A stretch of DNA of 64,000 bases from Bryobacterales bacterium (GCA_963743705.1 CAVUQS010000013.1:5415-69414); one strand, 5' to 3'. Positions 38,762-45,896 are shown, numbered from the stretch's first letter. Numbers and translations: made by a program. The notes: a model not told the origin generated them from the letters alone.

Positions 38762-39154
38762 GGGCGTGGGCGCGCCGGTAGTGGATATGCTGCGGGCGGC
38801 GCGGCCGGGATGCGCGAATCGCGCCGGTGTGGATTACGGGCGGGCAGAAGGAGCGGTACAACGGCGCGCTGTGGCATGTGCCGAAGCTGGATCTGCTGGC
38901 GCGGCTGCAAGCGCTGCTGGAGACGAAGCGGCTCCGCATCGCGCAGAGCATGAGGGACGCGGGGACGCTGGGTGCGGGAGCTGGTGAGTATGCGATCGGA
39001 ACGCCAGCCTAGCGGCCATTTGAAAATTGGGGCGGAAGGCGCCGGCGAGCATGACGACCTGGCGCTGGCGGCAGCATTGGCGGTATGGCCGGGACGGAAG
39101 GCGCGCGCGGGGGAACAAGGCGCGCGGTTGATCTAGCGTGAGCCACATAAAATA
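38762..39154 (+). pseudogene. Second, 5'-truncated and frameshifted copy of the terminase nuclease-domain 3' end
   Basis: It aligns with 12311-12703 at roughly 88-90% identity by eye (gggcgt.gggcgcgccggt.gtgga.atgctgcgggcggcgcggccgggatgcgcg...). Extra bases (gcgcgaatcgcg, ctgggtgcggg) break the frame. Confidence 0.75.
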
Positions 39155-39214: not shown

Positions 39215-39775
39215 TTGGCGCAAGACGAGAAGGACTGGGCCAAACCCCAGGCAATGGCTATCCCGAAAGAGGGATATTTCGAACGGCAGCAAGGCAAATA
39301 TGGACCGATCTATCCAAAGACGCCCGCCTGTTACGGCTTTACCATCATTGCCAAGATCAAGCCGGGCAAGGAAGATATCATTCGAGCGTACGGAAAAACC
39401 ATTGAAGGGGCGATCAAAGACTCCCCGGACATGCTCGCGCCTCTGCAGCTGCACTACCTGCGCTGGGTGCTGTTCCCCATCGGTAACGATACGTACTTCA
39501 TGTATCAGGGCATCTTCGACACCGATTTCGACAAATACACGGACGACGCTGTCGCTATCTTCACGAAATACGGCGTGGATACGATTTTCGAAAATCTGGA
39601 CGGGTTCCCGGCGGACTGGAAGACCAACATCCCGGCCTTCATCAAGTTCGTTCGCGAGCATCAGTGTCCCAGCTTCCTGGAATATGGGGAATACCCGTAC
39701 GCGAGCGCGGACGAGATTAAGAAAGCGCTCCGGCTGAAGCGGGCCTTCTCGGAAGCGCTCGACCAAATGCAGTAG
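39215..39775 (+). CDS. Conserved-looking hypothetical protein (186 aa), first gene of the DyP operon
   Basis: A TTG at 39215 follows gggaga; an alternative ATG lies at 39254. The composition is balanced and non-shadow: GFTIIAKIKPGKEDIIRAYGKTIEGAI...LHYLRWVLFPIGNDTYFMYQGIFDTDFDKYTDDAV. The antisense 361-aa ORF is judged a shadow. Confidence 0.65.
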   Translation: MAQDEKDWAKPQAMAIPKEGYFERQQGKYGPIYPKTPACYGFTIIAKIKPGKEDIIRAYGKTIEGAIKDSPDMLAPLQLHYLRWVLFPIGNDTYFMYQGIFDTDFDKYTDDAVAIFTKYGVDTIFENLDGFPADWKTNIPAFIKFVREHQCPSFLEYGEYPYASADEIKKALRLKRAFSEALDQMQ

Positions 39776-39789
39776 CGCAGGCCCTGCCA

Positions 39790-41202
39790 ATGACTGATAC
39801 GTACGACTTGATCGCGATCGGATCAGGTCCGGCCGGCGAAAGCGCCACCGAACTGGCATCTTTCTTCGGGCACCGCTGCGCGGTAATCGAGAAAGCCCGG
39901 CCTGGCGGAACCGTGACAACCACTGGCGGAGCGCCGACCAAGACGCTGCGCGAGGCCGCTCTTTATTTCTCTGGGTTGGTCGAAGGCGATATATACGGAG
40001 TAAGGATCGCCGCGCCTCCGGAAGTCGCCATCGATACGATTCGCAAACGAACGTGGGACGTCTGCGATCTGTTGCAAAAAGTGACTGCCGAGAACATCGC
40101 GAAGAATAACGTCGACTACATTCCGGGCGCGGCCCGGCTTGGACCGGCCGGAAGAGTTACTGTCACCGGCGACGGTGGACGAACGTGCGCACTCCGCGCG
40201 AAGGTGGTTCTGATTGCCACAGGATCGCGGCCGTGGCATCCCCCGAACATTCCGTTTGACTTGAAGGGCGTTTGCGATACAGATACCATCCTGCAGCGCG
40301 GCAGGGTTCCCAAGGACCTGCTGATTGCCGGCGGCGGCCCTGTCGGCATTGAATTCGCCACGATCGCTCACGCGTTGGGAGCGAGGGTCACGATTGCCGA
40401 GCGCGGCGATCGCCTGATGTCGATGATGGATCGCGAGATTGCCGCGTGCATGGAGGAGCTGTTCCAAGAGTGGGGCGTCCGTATCCTGTTCGGATCAACC
40501 TGCAATAGCATCGCCGCCAAGAACGGCGGGCTTGAGATCAAGATGTCCACCGGTGAAACGCTCGCGCAAGACACCGTCTTGTTCGCGGCGGGGCGGGTGG
40601 CGAACACCGAAGATTTGGGTCTGGACGCGGCGGGAGTCGCGCTCGACAGCCGTGGGCGGATCGTCGTAGACGGACACTTTCGGACCTCCGCGGAGGGCGT
40701 CTACGCGGCGGGCGATGTTCTTGGACCGACTCTTGCCTCGATCGCGATGGAGCATGGCCGCGCGGCGATTTGCCATGCCTTCGGCATTCCCTTTGAGGGG
40801 ATTGTGGACCCGGCTCCGGTATCGGCGATCTATGGCATGCCGGAGGTTTCGGGCGCCGGTCTCACGGAAGAGGAATGCCGCGAAAAGCGCCTTGACTACG
40901 AGGTTGGCCGGGCGGACCTTGCCCTAACTCCTCGCGGCGCCATCGCCGGACGCGGCGGGCGATTGAAGCTGATCTTTTCCAAGAGCGATCGCAAGCTGCT
41001 CGGCGTCCATTGTATTGGCGACATCGCTTCGGAAATCGTAGGGATCGGCCAGATGGCCATCCGATGCGGCGGCACGATGAATACCATCGCGAATATGTCG
41101 CTCAACACCCCGACTTATAGCTACGCGTACAAGTACGCGGCTTTTGACGGACTGCGCCGGTTAGCCGCGGCGCGTTTAGAAAAGACAGGAGTCGCCCAAT
41201 GA
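39790..41202 (+). CDS. FAD/NAD(P)-binding pyridine nucleotide-disulfide oxidoreductase family protein, SthA-like (no redox-active CxxxxC)
   Basis: It has GxGxxG FAD (LIAIGSGPAG) and NAD (LIAGGGPVGIEFA) motifs, AAGDVLG, and a dimerisation-domain end. The site where lipoamide dehydrogenases carry CxxxxC reads GGTVTTTGGAPTKTLRE. Confidence 0.8.
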   Translation: MTDTYDLIAIGSGPAGESATELASFFGHRCAVIEKARPGGTVTTTGGAPTKTLREAALYFSGLVEGDIYGVRIAAPPEVAIDTIRKRTWDVCDLLQKVTAENIAKNNVDYIPGAARLGPAGRVTVTGDGGRTCALRAKVVLIATGSRPWHPPNIPFDLKGVCDTDTILQRGRVPKDLLIAGGGPVGIEFATIAHALGARVTIAERGDRLMSMMDREIAACMEELFQEWGVRILFGSTCNSIAAKNGGLEIKMSTGETLAQDTVLFAAGRVANTEDLGLDAAGVALDSRGRIVVDGHFRTSAEGVYAAGDVLGPTLASIAMEHGRAAICHAFGIPFEGIVDPAPVSAIYGMPEVSGAGLTEEECREKRLDYEVGRADLALTPRGAIAGRGGRLKLIFSKSDRKLLGVHCIGDIASEIVGIGQMAIRCGGTMNTIANMSLNTPTYSYAYKYAAFDGLRRLAAARLEKTGVAQ

Positions 41203-42203
41203 GCCCTGCACGAGTTTACAACCACTATCACGCCCCGCGGAAGTACACGCCCGGCAAGCGGCGGTTTAGCGTTTATTGGACCTGGAGCTACCCATGGGAA
41301 GCCAATCGGGACCTGACAGAGATGGATAACCGCTTCTCCACCATGACAGAGGTGCGCCGCGTTGGGTGGCCTGTTTGGGAGAAAGAGGAATTCTCGGAGA
41401 AGATGTTCCTGCAAGGCATCGCTGGAACGCTGGAGTTGTTTCACTTGTCGATCGTGAGCTTTCAGAATGTTGTCGGCGAGGCCACGGGGCAGCCTGTATC
41501 CGTGTTCCAGCGGATCGATCAGGCCGGGCAGCGATTGCCTCTCGACGAGCGCGTGCTCGCCGACACGGACACCCTCATGGTATTCGGACTGGACCATATG
41601 GTCACAGAACAGGAAGCGTCCCCGGAAGAGATCGAGGCGATTCGCCACTTTCTTACCCGCGAGGGAACTTGCCTGGTCTTGGGTCCGCATCACGACGTGG
41701 GCTGCTCCGAGGACCTGAAAGTCCGTGCGATGGAATACGCGCACCACGGGGATCCTCTGGTCCCGCGGCAACAAAGGTTCGGTAAGTACACTCGATCTCT
41801 CATGAAAGGCCTCGGCGTTCCCATAGAGAATCGCTACGGTCTGCGCCCGGCGACGGCGCCAGGAACCAGTCAGCCTCTTCCTCTTACCGTGAACAGCGAC
41901 CTGGATACTCGCGGGTGGCTCAACGGCGTCCGCACATTCATTTTCCATATGCACTTGCCACACTATGCCTTAACCACCGACGACCCAAAGGCTATCCGGC
42001 TGTTGGCGCGGCAGCCCGTGGATATGTCGAAGCCGCATCCGTTTATCGAAGCGGGAAACCGGGAGTTCAACATGTTTCTGTGGATGCCGCCCGCGCCGAA
42101 TCGCGCCGGAGACATTCTGCTGGCGGATTCCACGATCTTCACCACACTGTTCGGAGGCGATGAAAGTCTCGAGACTTTCTGGAAGAATCTCGCGACCAAA
42201 TAA
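41199..42203 (+). CDS. Hypothetical protein (334 aa), translationally coupled within the operon
   Basis: The start overlaps upstream by ATGA and the stop overlaps downstream by TAATG. The sequence is plausibly globular (DTLMVFGLDHMVTEQEASPEEIEAIRHFLTREGTCLVLGPHHDVG). No family is assigned. Confidence 0.65.
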   Translation: MSPARVYNHYHAPRKYTPGKRRFSVYWTWSYPWEANRDLTEMDNRFSTMTEVRRVGWPVWEKEEFSEKMFLQGIAGTLELFHLSIVSFQNVVGEATGQPVSVFQRIDQAGQRLPLDERVLADTDTLMVFGLDHMVTEQEASPEEIEAIRHFLTREGTCLVLGPHHDVGCSEDLKVRAMEYAHHGDPLVPRQQRFGKYTRSLMKGLGVPIENRYGLRPATAPGTSQPLPLTVNSDLDTRGWLNGVRTFIFHMHLPHYALTTDDPKAIRLLARQPVDMSKPHPFIEAGNREFNMFLWMPPAPNRAGDILLADSTIFTTLFGGDESLETFWKNLATK

Positions 42204-43135
42204 TGCGCCGAACCCAGAGGCTGATAGCCAGGCCGCATTGGGTGTGGTTGTTCGCCACACTGATCGCCGCGAAACCGGCGCTAGCGCAGAATCGGGGCGT
42301 CTATCCACTGGGCATGAGCGCGATCAACTCGGGGGTCACGCCGGGACCCGGGTTCAGCTACACGAACCAACTACTCTTCTATGTGCGCGATCAGGCCAAG
42401 GACGATGACGGCAAGACGCTGTCCATAGCGGGCCTCAACACCGTGGTGATGGATATGAATTCGCTGACTTGGGTGAGTACCAAACGGATTTTCGGAGCGC
42501 GGTACGCCGCGGCAGCCACTCTGCCTTTCGCGAAAAACGATCTGACCTCCGATATTGAAGGCCAGATCAGCGGCGGCATCGGATTCGCGGATTCGTATTA
42601 CTTGCCCTTAATCCTCGGTTGGAGCACGGAGCGCGTGGAGGTCCGGGCAATGTATGGCTTCCTGGCCCCGACTGGGCGGTTCGTGCCGGGCGCGAACAAC
42701 AACGTGGGGTCGGGATATTGGACGCACGCCCTGTCGTCGGGACAGACGTATTATCTGACGCGCGACAGGCGCGTCACCCTCTCTACGTTCGAGATGTACG
42801 AATTTCATACGACTCAGGAGGGCACGCGTATTCATCCGGGCGAGACGCTTGACGCGGATTACTCATTGATGGGTTCGATTCACCGCACCGCAAGCCTGGA
42901 TTTCCAAATGGGTATCACCGGATACGAGGCGCGGCAAACGACGGCGAAAACCGGGCCCGATGTCACTCCGGCGGTATCGGCGGAACGCTACGCCATCAAT
43001 GCCGTCGGATTTGCGTTCGCCGCGGTGTTCCCGAAACGGAAGGCGAACCTCGGCTTTCGTTACTTTCGGGAATTCGCCGACCGGTCGACGTTTCAGGGCT
43101 ATTCGGCGCAGGTTTCGGGGGGAATCAGTTTCTGA
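42203..43135 (+). CDS. Outer-membrane beta-barrel channel, 'MetA-pathway of phenol degradation'-like transporter family
   Basis: The signal is WVWLFATLIAAKPALAQ. The N-terminal motif NRGVYPLGMSAINSGVTPGPGFSYTNQLLFY is present, with alternating beta-strand pattern to a C-terminal F. The family is assigned by resemblance. Confidence 0.6.
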   Translation: MRRTQRLIARPHWVWLFATLIAAKPALAQNRGVYPLGMSAINSGVTPGPGFSYTNQLLFYVRDQAKDDDGKTLSIAGLNTVVMDMNSLTWVSTKRIFGARYAAAATLPFAKNDLTSDIEGQISGGIGFADSYYLPLILGWSTERVEVRAMYGFLAPTGRFVPGANNNVGSGYWTHALSSGQTYYLTRDRRVTLSTFEMYEFHTTQEGTRIHPGETLDADYSLMGSIHRTASLDFQMGITGYEARQTTAKTGPDVTPAVSAERYAINAVGFAFAAVFPKRKANLGFRYFREFADRSTFQGYSAQVSGGISF

Positions 43136-43162
43136 AAGAAGTGCCTACGCGAGGAGGATACG

Positions 43163-44491
43163 TTGGCTGAAATTGCGCTGGAACTGGACGATATTCAAAG
43201 CGGCGCGCTGCGCCCGCGCCCGACTCCGTACGCGGCGACCTATTTGATCTTCCGGATCGACGATCGCAGCGCCGGGCGCCAGTTCATGAGCCGTCTGCGT
43301 TCCGTAGTGGCGTCGGCGGAGCAAGCCGCGCGCTCCCACCGCGACACGTGGGTAAGCGCCGCACTGAGTTATCAAGGCCTGAAGGCGCTGGGCGTGCCGC
43401 AAGCTTCGCTGGAGAGTTTCTCGCCGGAGTTCCAACAGGGCATGGTGTCCCGCGCCAAATCGCTGGGCGACACCGGCGAGAGCAGCCTGGAGCACTGGGA
43501 GAAACCGCTCGGATCGGCGGACGTCCACGTGGTGCTTACTGCCGTGGCGCCGAGCACCGAGCAGTTGCAAGCCGCATTGGAAAGAGCCCGGAAAAGCTAC
43601 GCGGAATTTGCGGGTATCACGGCGATCTGGCGTCAGGATTGTCATGTGCTGCCGGGCGAGAAGGAAGCGTTCGGGTTCAAGGACGGCATCAGTCATCCCG
43701 CAATAGAAGGATCTGGAATTCCAGGCAGCAATCCTCATGAGCGCCCGCTTAAGCCGGGCGAATTCGTGCTTGGCTACCCGGACGAGATGAGCGAAGCGCC
43801 GCAAGTACCGCAACCCGACGCGCTGGGGCGCAACGGAAGTTACGTTGTGTTCCGCAAACTGCACCAGCGCGTCGCCGAATTTCGCCGGTATCTAAAGACA
43901 AACGCCGCGGGCGCCGGGGAAGAGGAACTCCTTGCCGCCAAGATGATGGGGCGGTGGCGCAGCGGCGCGCCGCTGGCGCTCTGTCCCATGCACGACGACC
44001 CCGCGCTCGGTACCGATGCACAGCGAAACAACGCATTCCTCTTTCATCAGGACGATGCGATTGGCTACAAGACGCCCCGCGGATCGCACATCCGCCGCAT
44101 GAACCCCCGGGACTCGGATGTCGCGGGCGTGGTTCGCATCCACCGGATGATCCGCCGCGGCACTTCTTATGGCCCACTCCTTCCCGAAGGCGTTCTGGAG
44201 GACGATGGCGCGGACCGTGGACTGATGTTCGCCTTTATCGGCGCTCATTTGGGGCGTCAGTTTGAATTCGTCCAGTCAGAGTGGATGAACGATAGCGCAT
44301 TCTTCAGCGGGAGCGCCGGTAAGGATCCTATCAGTGGAGCAGCCGACGGCGCCGGGGCATTCGATATTCCCAAACGGCCGATTCGTCAGCGATTGCAGGG
44401 TCTACCTCGATTTGTGGTCACGCGCGGAGGCGAATATTGTTTCCTGCCAGGGCTGCGCGCGCTGGAATGGCTGGGGAACTTGACGACGTAA
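43163..44491 (+). CDS. DyP-type (dye-decolorizing) heme peroxidase
   Basis: The TTG start is preceded by aggagg. Family motifs are FGFKDGISHP, GSHIRRMNPRD (proximal His region), GLMFAFIGAHLGRQFEFVQSEWMN and FVVTRGGEYCFLP. Confidence 0.85.
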   Translation: MAEIALELDDIQSGALRPRPTPYAATYLIFRIDDRSAGRQFMSRLRSVVASAEQAARSHRDTWVSAALSYQGLKALGVPQASLESFSPEFQQGMVSRAKSLGDTGESSLEHWEKPLGSADVHVVLTAVAPSTEQLQAALERARKSYAEFAGITAIWRQDCHVLPGEKEAFGFKDGISHPAIEGSGIPGSNPHERPLKPGEFVLGYPDEMSEAPQVPQPDALGRNGSYVVFRKLHQRVAEFRRYLKTNAAGAGEEELLAAKMMGRWRSGAPLALCPMHDDPALGTDAQRNNAFLFHQDDAIGYKTPRGSHIRRMNPRDSDVAGVVRIHRMIRRGTSYGPLLPEGVLEDDGADRGLMFAFIGAHLGRQFEFVQSEWMNDSAFFSGSAGKDPISGAADGAGAFDIPKRPIRQRLQGLPRFVVTRGGEYCFLPGLRALEWLGNLTT

Positions 44492-44691: not shown

Positions 44692-45213
44692 ATGATGTCG
44701 TGCAGAACGCGTCGCTGGAACCTGGTAGCGCTGCTGGCGGTGGGCGGTCTCGCGGTAGGCGTCGCGGTAGCGCAAGTGATGCCGAAGGCGCAGGTAGCCA
44801 ACCTGATCACCAAAGTGGAAAACGGCGTGGACAATTTCCGCGACTACCTGAAGAAACGCGGAGAAAATGCGGCCACCGGAAGTTCGACGGCGCAGACGCA
44901 AACCGGACGTTCCAAGCGGGGCACAGCGACAGACGCCCAGAAGGCCACGGCCACGGGGCGAAAGGATGAGCTCGACGATGCACTGGACGGCTTGAATCAC
45001 TCGACCAACCGCCTGCGGCGAAAATTCGATGCCACCGACAGCTGGATGGAGACCAAGGTTCAGATGGAGCAGGTAATGGACGACGCGCGAAAAATTAATC
45101 AGGTGGTGGCGCGCGGCAACTACGGGGCCGAAGCCGCAAAACTCTGGGGAGTACTTCGGAGCGGCATCAATGACCTTGCTCGCGCGTACGGAATTCAGCC
45201 GCTCGCAGTGTGA
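44692..45213 (+). CDS. Hypothetical exported protein
   Basis: It has a signal/anchor (RRWNLVALLAVGGLAVGVAVAQ) and a helical charged body. Its stop overlaps the next gene start (GTGA at 45210). Confidence 0.5.
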   Translation: MMSCRTRRWNLVALLAVGGLAVGVAVAQVMPKAQVANLITKVENGVDNFRDYLKKRGENAATGSSTAQTQTGRSKRGTATDAQKATATGRKDELDDALDGLNHSTNRLRRKFDATDSWMETKVQMEQVMDDARKINQVVARGNYGAEAAKLWGVLRSGINDLARAYGIQPLAV

Positions 45214-45896
45214 AGCAATCCATATTTGATTTGACGCGGTGGCGGCGACGGCCGCCGCCCGTCATCCGGCCGGAAAGTGAGTCAGATGTGAAACCGTTCC
45301 GTCAATCTATCACGCAGACACTGGTTGCGGGCGTGCTCTTTGTGCTTCCCGTCTACCTGGCAATTCTATTGTTGGCAAAGGCCATGAAGTCGCTTGGCCG
45401 CCTGGTCGAGCCAGTCGCGGGCCTGCTGCCGGATTGGCTCCCGGCTGAAACGCTTGTCTCTTTTCTGCTCGTGCTGGCTCTTTGCTTCCTCGTCGGGGCG
45501 GCTCTTCGGACGCGATTGGGTCAGGCGACGCGGAGCAGAATGGAGAACTCGCTGTTCCGAAAAATCCCGGGCTACACGATGTTTCGAAGTATGACCCGGC
45601 AACTGGCCGGAGATAACCGTGAGAGCGCTTGGAAGCCCGCCCTGGCCGAGATCGAGGATGCTCTCGTTCCCGCTTTCATCGTTGAAGAATTCAACGACGG
45701 ACGCTTCACGGTTTTCGTTCCCTCCATTCCCACTCCGTTCGCGGGCGCCGTCTACATTCTCGACGCCGCACGCGTGCATCCGCTCAACATCCCGTTCACT
45801 CAAATGGTGAAGGTAGTCACGCGGTGGGGAACGGGCTCCAGGGAACTGGTCGCCGCCATGCAAGAAAGCCGAATGCTGTCACCAAGCCTGAAGTGA
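45210..45896 (+). CDS. DUF502 family membrane protein
   Basis: There are two N-terminal TMs (LVAGVLFVLPVYLAILLLA; LVSFLLVLALCFLVGAAL). Further motifs are IPGYTMFRSM and a beta-rich C-domain, FTVFVPSIPTPFAGAVYILD. Confidence 0.7.
   Translation: MKQSIFDLTRWRRRPPPVIRPESESDVKPFRQSITQTLVAGVLFVLPVYLAILLLAKAMKSLGRLVEPVAGLLPDWLPAETLVSFLLVLALCFLVGAALRTRLGQATRSRMENSLFRKIPGYTMFRSMTRQLAGDNRESAWKPALAEIEDALVPAFIVEEFNDGRFTVFVPSIPTPFAGAVYILDAARVHPLNIPFTQMVKVVTRWGTGSRELVAAMQESRMLSPSLK

Follow-up and report, generated by a model that had tools for sequence, protein, structure and literature searches.

A five-gene operon around a dye-decolorizing peroxidase

A 64,000-nt stretch of DNA from a Bryobacterales bacterium (the window, by which we mean this whole stretch) carries at positions 39215-44491 five same-strand genes that constitute one co-directional, translationally coupled operon (Table 1). 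Its products are two proteins of unnamed families, to which we refer by their lengths as A186 and C334, together with a flavoprotein, an outer-membrane channel and a dye-decolorizing peroxidase (DyP). When the sequence is read directly, a 14-nt gap follows the TAG codon of the A186 gene (39773-39775), the flavoprotein and C334 genes share an ATGA overlap (41199-41202), the C334 and channel genes share a TAATG overlap (42201-42205), and a 27-nt gap precedes the DyP gene, with a ribosome-binding site, gaggagg, ahead of the TTG at 43163. The A186 gene has its own ribosome-binding site, aagggag, 8-14 nt 5' of its TTG. The first-pass annotation of this DNA had described five open reading frames (ORFs), their coordinates and junctions, and the families of three of the products, all of which agree with our analysis. 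Its description of a coupled operon built around the DyP also stands: the five same-strand ORFs are joined by overlaps or short gaps, and the arrangement recurs in other genomes.

Table 1. Genes of the operon, in window coordinates.
Gene	Position	Strand	Product	Description
A186	39215..39775	+	186 aa, TTG start	Cytoplasmic protein of an unnamed family; apparent partner of long (class V) DyPs
B, flavoprotein	39790..41202	+	470 aa	Cys-less class-I pyridine-nucleotide-disulfide-oxidoreductase fold; lineage-specific accessory
C334	41199..42203	+	334 aa	Cytoplasmic protein of an unnamed family
D, channel	42203..43135	+	310 aa	Phenol_MetA_deg / COG4313 outer-membrane family; N-terminal signal-like segment; accessory
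E, DyP	43163..44491	+	442 aa, TTG start	Cytoplasmic class-V (C-type) DyP heme peroxidase

Comparison with orthologues from three related genomes gave ratios of nonsynonymous to synonymous substitution rates (dN/dS) of 0.05-0.19 for all five genes, with synonymous rates (dS) of 0.6-2.1, near saturation. Because dN/dS is low at nearly saturated synonymous sites, all five are functional coding genes under strong purifying selection, and their high protein identity reflects constraint and not recent copying. The lowest ratio of the five belongs to C334 (0.05-0.08). PADLOC returned no anti-phage defense match for the operon proteins, Rfam no RNA element or riboswitch at E < 0.09, and promoter and terminator scans no signal above shuffled expectation.

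A186, C334 and the DyP are the conserved unit

A scan of one genome per species recovered at least 583 stretches encoding C334 relatives, of which the best 80 loci were analyzed; in these, C334 is 73-89% identical to that of the window. Presence was counted in the 61 loci whose flanks extend for at least 3.5 kb both ways. The genes for A186 (58-89% identical to the window's), C334 and the DyP occur in all 61, as neighbors on one strand just as in the window. The MetA (COG4313) channel is present in 38 of the 61 and a flavoprotein orthologous at 60% identity or more in 19; 14 loci have exactly the order A-B-C-D-E, and the orders A-E-C-D, A-C-E and C-A-E are also seen. Clustering of ORFs over the 80 loci revealed no universal neighbor beyond these three genes. 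Because A186, C334 and the DyP are universal and the other two genes are not, the conserved unit is an A186-C334-DyP triad, of which the five-gene form is the Bryobacterales-type variant. The co-conservation that the first-pass annotation expected of all five genes is therefore borne out for the triad but not for the full gene order.

Among the best 80 loci, the triad is found in Acidobacteriota, Eremiobacterota, Bacteroidota (Chitinophagaceae), Myxococcota (Minicystis rosea), Alphaproteobacteria, Gemmatimonadota and an Eiseniibacteriota bin; plasmid records add triads from Nostoc (Cyanobacteria) and Streptomyces (Actinomycetota), for a span of at least nine phyla of soil bacteria. It is rare, patchy and very strongly conserved, with C334 present in 4 of 401 sampled Acidobacteriota genomes, the host genome included. 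In a maximum-likelihood tree of C334, the Bacteroidota, Alphaproteobacteria and Gemmatimonadota sequences each form one clade nested among Acidobacteriota, and the Nostoc and Streptomyces plasmid copies lie beside insertion-sequence and toxin-antitoxin genes. Both the nested clades and these plasmid copies fit horizontal spread; since the tree is unrooted and the sample is biased towards the query, no donor is claimed. The module is abundant in soil metagenomes (thousands of 90%-identity clusters), and cultured carriers of the triad include Minicystis rosea DSM 24000, Nostoc sp. ATCC 53789 and Streptomyces NBC strains. Public annotations label A186 and C334 'hypothetical protein', and full-text literature searches turned up no paper on these partners or on the module. 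An unnamed membrane protein of ~140 aa adjoins the triad in 16 of the 80 loci (e.g. L035:4607-5011 and, on the minus strand, L007:4351-4785) and has no counterpart in the window.

These conservation data already contradict the reading that the genes are chance neighbors, or reflect local synteny, with no functional link. The three core genes are adjacent in 61 of 61 loci, across many phyla, in at least four gene orders and on plasmids too, with overlapping or short junctions, and we consider such a coincidence extremely improbable.

The peroxidase is a long, cytoplasmic class V enzyme

The DyP exceeds the cut-offs of its families in TIGR01413 (122.6 bits against 100.5), PF21105 (40.1 against 27.5) and PF20628 (22.2 against 20). 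In 38 orthologues that cover both sub-types of the enzyme found across the loci (~70-85% and 41-46% identical to the window's DyP), the distal Asp D174 (FGFKDG), proximal His H309 (SHIRRMNPRD) and distal Arg R331/R332 do not vary, and these catalytic residues align with those of DrDyP (DR_A0145) from Deinococcus radiodurans. DrDyP is also the closest PDB entry (8RE3/8RE2, E 2.5e-127, full length); other top matches are an ancestral D-type DyP, fungal DyPs, DyP2 and AnaPX. The enzyme is of the long form, class V (C-type), and belongs to neither class A nor class B, with no hydrophobic or twin-Arg N-terminus visible.

DrDyP, of the same class C/V and the only close relative with a solved structure, is reported to be six-coordinate low-spin and, when purified alone, inactive at physiological pH; its physiological substrate is unknown (PMC10820274). 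Directly upstream of its gene lies an A186-family gene, DR_A0144 (hhalign probability 98.3%), and a third gene, of ~330-360 aa, follows; in these points the locus resembles that of the window. It differs in that DR_A0144 is longer than A186 (243 aa) and only ~24% identical to it, in that the third partner, DR_A0146, is of the catalase family and not of the C334 family, and in its fatty-acid metabolism context, in which there is neither an SthA-like flavoprotein nor an outer-membrane channel.

DyPs with dedicated, operon-encoded partners have precedents in EfeUOB iron uptake, Sco-ECuC-DtpA copper trafficking and encapsulin-DyP nanocompartments (PMC9719856). Those systems use DyPs of class A, which are Tat-exported, or of class B, the encapsulin cargo; the DyP of the window is instead of class V, long and cytoplasmic, and no signal-like or cargo tail can be seen on it. 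Genes for EfeU/EfeO, Sco or encapsulin are absent from the surroundings of the triad and its DyP in the window and the 80 loci.

A186 belongs to a family that accompanies long DyPs

Neither A186 nor C334 has a match in Pfam, NCBIfam, PADLOC or the sequences of the PDB, where both single-sequence and profile searches against solved structures gave nothing below E 0.1. The first-pass annotation could name no family for either protein, and we likewise found no well-characterized one.

A186 itself has 7438 homologue clusters. Its AlphaFold2 model has a mean predicted local distance difference test (pLDDT) score of 78 and comprises a beta-alpha-beta-beta-alpha-beta core with extra helices, from which we predict a single ferredoxin-like domain of the dimeric alpha+beta barrel type followed by C-terminal helices. 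Foldseek matches the model, weakly, to dimeric alpha+beta barrel proteins exclusively (PeHNL, SP1, IsdI, and Dabb and ABM types); the best structural matches include ABM monooxygenases, the IsdG/IsdI heme oxygenases, stress-related Dabb proteins and PeHNL. A186 is ~80 residues longer than these barrel proteins, with N- and C-terminal extensions, and has no Pfam ABM or Dabb match. Four residues (H80, F101, Y108 and D111) are invariant even when distant paralogues are included, and they differ from the conserved residues of ABM/Dabb barrel proteins. We also considered A186 as a split-off half of a DyP and rejected the idea, since hhalign of A186 against DyP profiles gave a probability of 0.6%.

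The family is found with long DyPs well beyond the triad. Besides DR_A0144, its members lie beside long DyPs on plasmids of Brucella anthropi and Sphingomonas naphthae, and in the host genome a second long DyP is preceded by two tandem A186-like paralogues. Because the A186 profile finds only two A186-like loci in the host genome, at the two long DyPs, the short DyP of that genome has no A186-like neighbor. By these comparisons, A186 is one of a protein family that partners long DyPs in general. The second long-DyP module (G000:C12:735690-738300; loci L003, L098 and L100) consists of a pyrroloquinoline quinone (PQQ)-dependent dehydrogenase gene, then genes for the A186-like proteins of 198 and 210 aa, then the long DyP gene, and includes no C334 gene.

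The catalase-family third gene in related modules invites an account in which the A186-DyP pair handles lipid or fatty-acid hydroperoxides (oxylipin processing), with C334 taking the place of the catalase-like enzyme. Paralogous A186-like plus DyP modules include a protein of the catalase family that is similar in length, and they adjoin genes for 3-hydroxyacyl-CoA dehydrogenase, oleate hydratase, thioesterase, patatin and TetR; DR_A0146 is reportedly without catalase activity (PMC6300522), and the COG4313, DcaP and SBF transporters that accompany the triad (see below) would suit amphipathic carboxylates. That lipid link comes, however, from the context of the paralogues alone. Beside the C334-type triad, the 80 loci have no recurrent gene of lipid metabolism, C334 is not catalase-like, and we regard a role in lipid hydroperoxide processing as quite unlikely.

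C334 has a predicted amidotransferase-like fold and a conserved His/Asp cluster

A C334 profile run against 1.84 billion representatives gave 923 hits, all within its own small family and mostly fragments, and no Pfam domain was found in any of 10 family members checked, longer ones included. The AlphaFold2 model (pLDDT 78, predicted template modeling score 0.84) is of an alpha/beta fold. Its best Foldseek matches are the PabA part of ADC synthase (8hx8), the CTP synthase glutaminase domain, lin1909 and the IFT52 GIFT domain, and on this basis a flavodoxin / class-I glutamine-amidotransferase-like fold is predicted. We also considered whether C334 could be a diverged counterpart of the catalase-family protein that accompanies the DyP in D. 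radiodurans, Brucella and Sphingomonas; this was rejected, as the model is alpha/beta, matches amidotransferase-like domains and does not have the catalase fold.

The position of the nucleophile elbow, after the strand at 158-163, reads GPHHDVG. No catalytic Cys is conserved at the elbow in 49 orthologues or in 13 distant relatives (35-67% identity), so that C334, unlike class-I glutamine amidotransferases, has no Cys-His-Glu triad, and at the level of sequence it is related to no Pfam or PDB entry. In the predicted fold, its conserved residues are located where the amidotransferase active site lies. Those invariant in the 13 distant relatives include D132, H164, H165, H182, H183, D185, H250, H252, H280 and D310, and we propose that this His/Asp cluster probably binds metal where the amidotransferase active site used to be. 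The nearly invariant residues 32-61 are modeled at pLDDT < 50, which would fit a segment that becomes ordered on a partner or ligand.

Some distant relatives of C334 are found in other surroundings. Four lie directly downstream (0-4 nt) of a gene for a ~730-aa tyrosine-decarboxylase-like pyridoxal phosphate (PLP) enzyme (L086:4847-7978, L093:2650-5833, L094:3-1775 and L095:1-1459); two of these four loci also have M28 and M4 peptidase genes and emfourin upstream. Two others (37-38% identity) lie between MbnB/DUF692 and DUF2063 genes on Rhizobium plasmids (L090:4676-9721 and L092:4599-9548), in operons that continue past DUF2063 with DoxX, an extracytoplasmic function (ECF) sigma factor and NrsF. 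Operons of this type make copper-binding peptides (bufferins). These DyP-free contexts therefore indicate that C334 has a chemistry of its own, which the DyP module would have recruited.

Such contexts also bear on the possibility that the triad is a metal redox or homeostasis module. In such a module the DyP would oxidize a metal ion or the metal center of C334, much as EfeB acts with Fe(II) and DtpA serves the copper enzyme GlxA, and C334 would be a cytoplasmic metal-binding protein. The invariant cluster of seven His plus Asp residues, retained in distant relatives, and the presence of C334-like genes inside MbnB/DUF692-DUF2063-DoxX-ECF sigma-NrsF operons in two Rhizobium strains speak for such a module, and the physiological roles known for DyPs concern Fe and Cu (PMC9719856). 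Yet metal transporters, chaperones and metal-sensing regulators are not recurrent neighbors of the triad in the 80 loci, the accessory transporters (COG4313 channel, DcaP-like porin, SBF) are of organic-solute families, and metal binding by C334 is itself putative. We consider it unlikely that metal homeostasis is what the triad serves.

The flavoprotein and the channel are accessories

The flavoprotein has flavin adenine dinucleotide (FAD), nicotinamide adenine dinucleotide (NAD) and dimerization domains (Pfam Pyr_redox_2, 186 bits, plus Pyr_redox_dim). Its segment GGTVTTTGGAPTKTLRE is without Cys, and at the motif position, where it reads GGTVTTTGGAPTK, there is likewise none: the architecture is that of class I with the CxxxxC redox disulfide missing, as the first-pass annotation had seen. 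In the class-I fold and the absent disulfide it resembles both SthA (NF003585; 9n4y) and the Cys-less LpdA-type NAD(P)H-quinone reductases (NF005883, 219 bits). The SthA equivalog NF003585 is its best NCBIfam match, but the score of 406.1 bits falls short of the cut-off of 465, and the aligned SthA structure 9n4y retains one Cys at the motif position where the flavoprotein has none. Because the score lies below the cut-off and a true SthA (646 bits) is encoded elsewhere in the host genome, the protein is not the housekeeping SthA but a second, divergent paralogue. Unlike the host's SthA, it is confined to the DyP operon in the loci examined, where its orthologues lie always and only between A186 and C334.

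Eremiobacterota loci without this orthologue have another flavoprotein of the same fold (~30% identity), transcribed divergently beside the triad, which also lacks both Cys residues: FGGMAANEGPIP (L021:4106-5479, minus strand; same position in L027, L047 and L048). Because two unrelated Cys-less flavoproteins are found at the same place, we would count an NAD(P)H-linked reductase as a genuine functional accessory of the triad. For the flavoprotein of the window, the analogy with the Cys-less LpdA-type reductases makes re-reduction of a quinone or radical seem more likely than transhydrogenation.

The channel matches PF13557 (Phenol_MetA_deg) with 128.5 bits against a cut-off of 22, over residues 63-303 and profile positions 2-239 of 242. 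Channels of COG4313, such as Pput2725, are implicated in taking up hydrophobic molecules (PMC4493636). The window's channel shares the PF13557 membership of Pput2725, but a phmmer search found no detectable match between it and any solved chain. The family name of PF13557 is a putative annotation, and the implication in PMC4493636 is the sole support for uptake of a phenolic or hydrophobic substrate. In other lineages, different proteins of this kind accompany the triad: a DcaP-like porin replaces the channel in Bacteroidota loci, SBF-family transporters are extra neighbors in Eremiobacterota, Vicinamibacteria and Streptomyces, and MarC is one in Nostoc. Further lineage-specific extras are SnoaL-like proteins and a small membrane protein. 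Because the porin or transporters change with lineage, the set supports an imported small molecule, although not necessarily an aromatic one, as a candidate substrate; the inclusion of an outer-membrane uptake channel in the first-pass annotation agrees with this.

The first-pass annotation had gone further, to an oxidative pathway for an aromatic or phenolic substrate taken up from outside, with redox balance linked to NAD(P)H. Read as the catabolism of a carbon source of that kind, this makes the flavoprotein a soluble transhydrogenase that balances NAD(P)H. Part of our evidence is compatible with such a pathway: the name of the channel family and its link to hydrophobic uptake (PMC4493636), the SnoaL-like genes in some loci, and the coupling of distant C334 relatives to tyrosine-decarboxylase-like enzymes, that is, to a phenolic amine; DyPs also oxidize phenolics in vitro. 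A degradation pathway is nevertheless not indicated, as genes for ring cleavage, CoA ligases or other downstream catabolic steps do not recur in the 80 loci. The channel is missing from 23 of the 61 full-flank loci and the flavoprotein from 42, and with the latter below the SthA cut-off and a true SthA elsewhere in the genome, transhydrogenase-type redox balancing is unlikely. The rare, patchy and plasmid-borne distribution is also more in keeping with an accessory trait for detoxification or transformation than with core carbon catabolism. We therefore hold the catabolic reading to be improbable, and an aromatic or phenolic substrate class to be a guess.

Sequences flanking the operon

At window positions 38860-39100, two out-of-frame pieces resemble, by eye, the C-terminal end of a phage terminase large subunit, and the segment has the look of a decayed gene immediately upstream of the operon. 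Seven other Bryobacterales loci (L007, L009, L011 and L014-L017) share the motif GGACTCC..GAAACATC..TGGAGGA.TTCC ~40 nt upstream of the A186 start; it may be an operator, and it is absent from the window. Downstream, after a 200-nt gap without a terminator-like site, positions 44692-45896 hold a 173-aa ORF with a strong ribosome-binding site (aaggagg) and, overlapping it by 4 nt, a 228-aa ORF with weak DUF502/DUF6338 matches. Neither is conserved beside the operon, even in the closest relative, L004. A 143-aa ORF after the DyP gene was considered as a member of the small membrane-protein family associated with the triad and was rejected for want of any similarity.

Proposed mechanism

Taking the evidence together, we favor, with somewhat more confidence than doubt, the proposal that the core of the operon is a conserved three-gene module for peroxide-dependent oxidation that acts on an imported small molecule and is supplemented by accessories. 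In this proposal, A186, C334 and the DyP would work jointly in the cytoplasm as a single system for peroxide-dependent oxidation. A small amphipathic or phenolic compound would enter through the channel, or through a porin or transporter in other lineages. A186 would serve as a general subunit or activator of long DyPs. C334 would be a metalloprotein, with its His/Asp cluster at the old amidotransferase active site, and could prepare or oxidize the substrate; it is also possible that C334 is itself the redox partner with which the DyP exchanges electrons. The flavoprotein, finally, would use NAD(P)H to re-reduce a quinone or radical product, as the Cys-less LpdA-type quinone reductases do, and would have no transhydrogenase role.

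Several observations weigh against this proposal. Both fold assignments are weak: Foldseek gave A186 probabilities of up to 0.98 with E values of 2e-3 to 3e-2 and template modeling (TM) scores of 0.25-0.5, and gave C334 a best E value of 9.5e-5 (range 1e-4 to 1e-2) with TM scores of 0.3-0.5 and root-mean-square deviations of 6-9 Å. The putative metal site of C334 is deduced solely from conserved residues, and hhalign finds no relationship between A186 and the DyP (the probability of 0.6% given above). Moreover, distant C334 relatives occur without any DyP, beside tyrosine-decarboxylase-like genes or within the MbnB/DUF692 operons, which are of the MNIO peptide-modification type.

If the proposal is correct in its strongest form, which we put forward tentatively and with more doubt than conviction, A186 and C334 would be obligatory subunits of a new multi-protein heme-plus-metal peroxidase/oxidase. 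The DyP would then be inactive alone at neutral pH and active only in the complex, and the system would perform an undescribed oxidation of a soil-derived small molecule and would have spread horizontally among soil bacteria of many phyla.

Conclusions

What is new in this work is the count of core and accessory genes for the five-gene form, the identification of the flavoprotein as a second paralogue together with its unrelated Cys-less analogue in Eremiobacterota, and, for C334, a predicted fold, the invariant cluster of His and Asp residues and the settings without a DyP in which its distant relatives occur. C334 and A186 would add two protein families to the characterized folds, one of them with an amidotransferase-like active site that may have been put to a new use. 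What bacterial DyPs do physiologically, the long class C/V enzymes especially, is an acknowledged open question, for which the triad gives a testable lead. With two strongly conserved, unnamed proteins always accompanying this DyP, there is now a direct experimental handle on DyP function.

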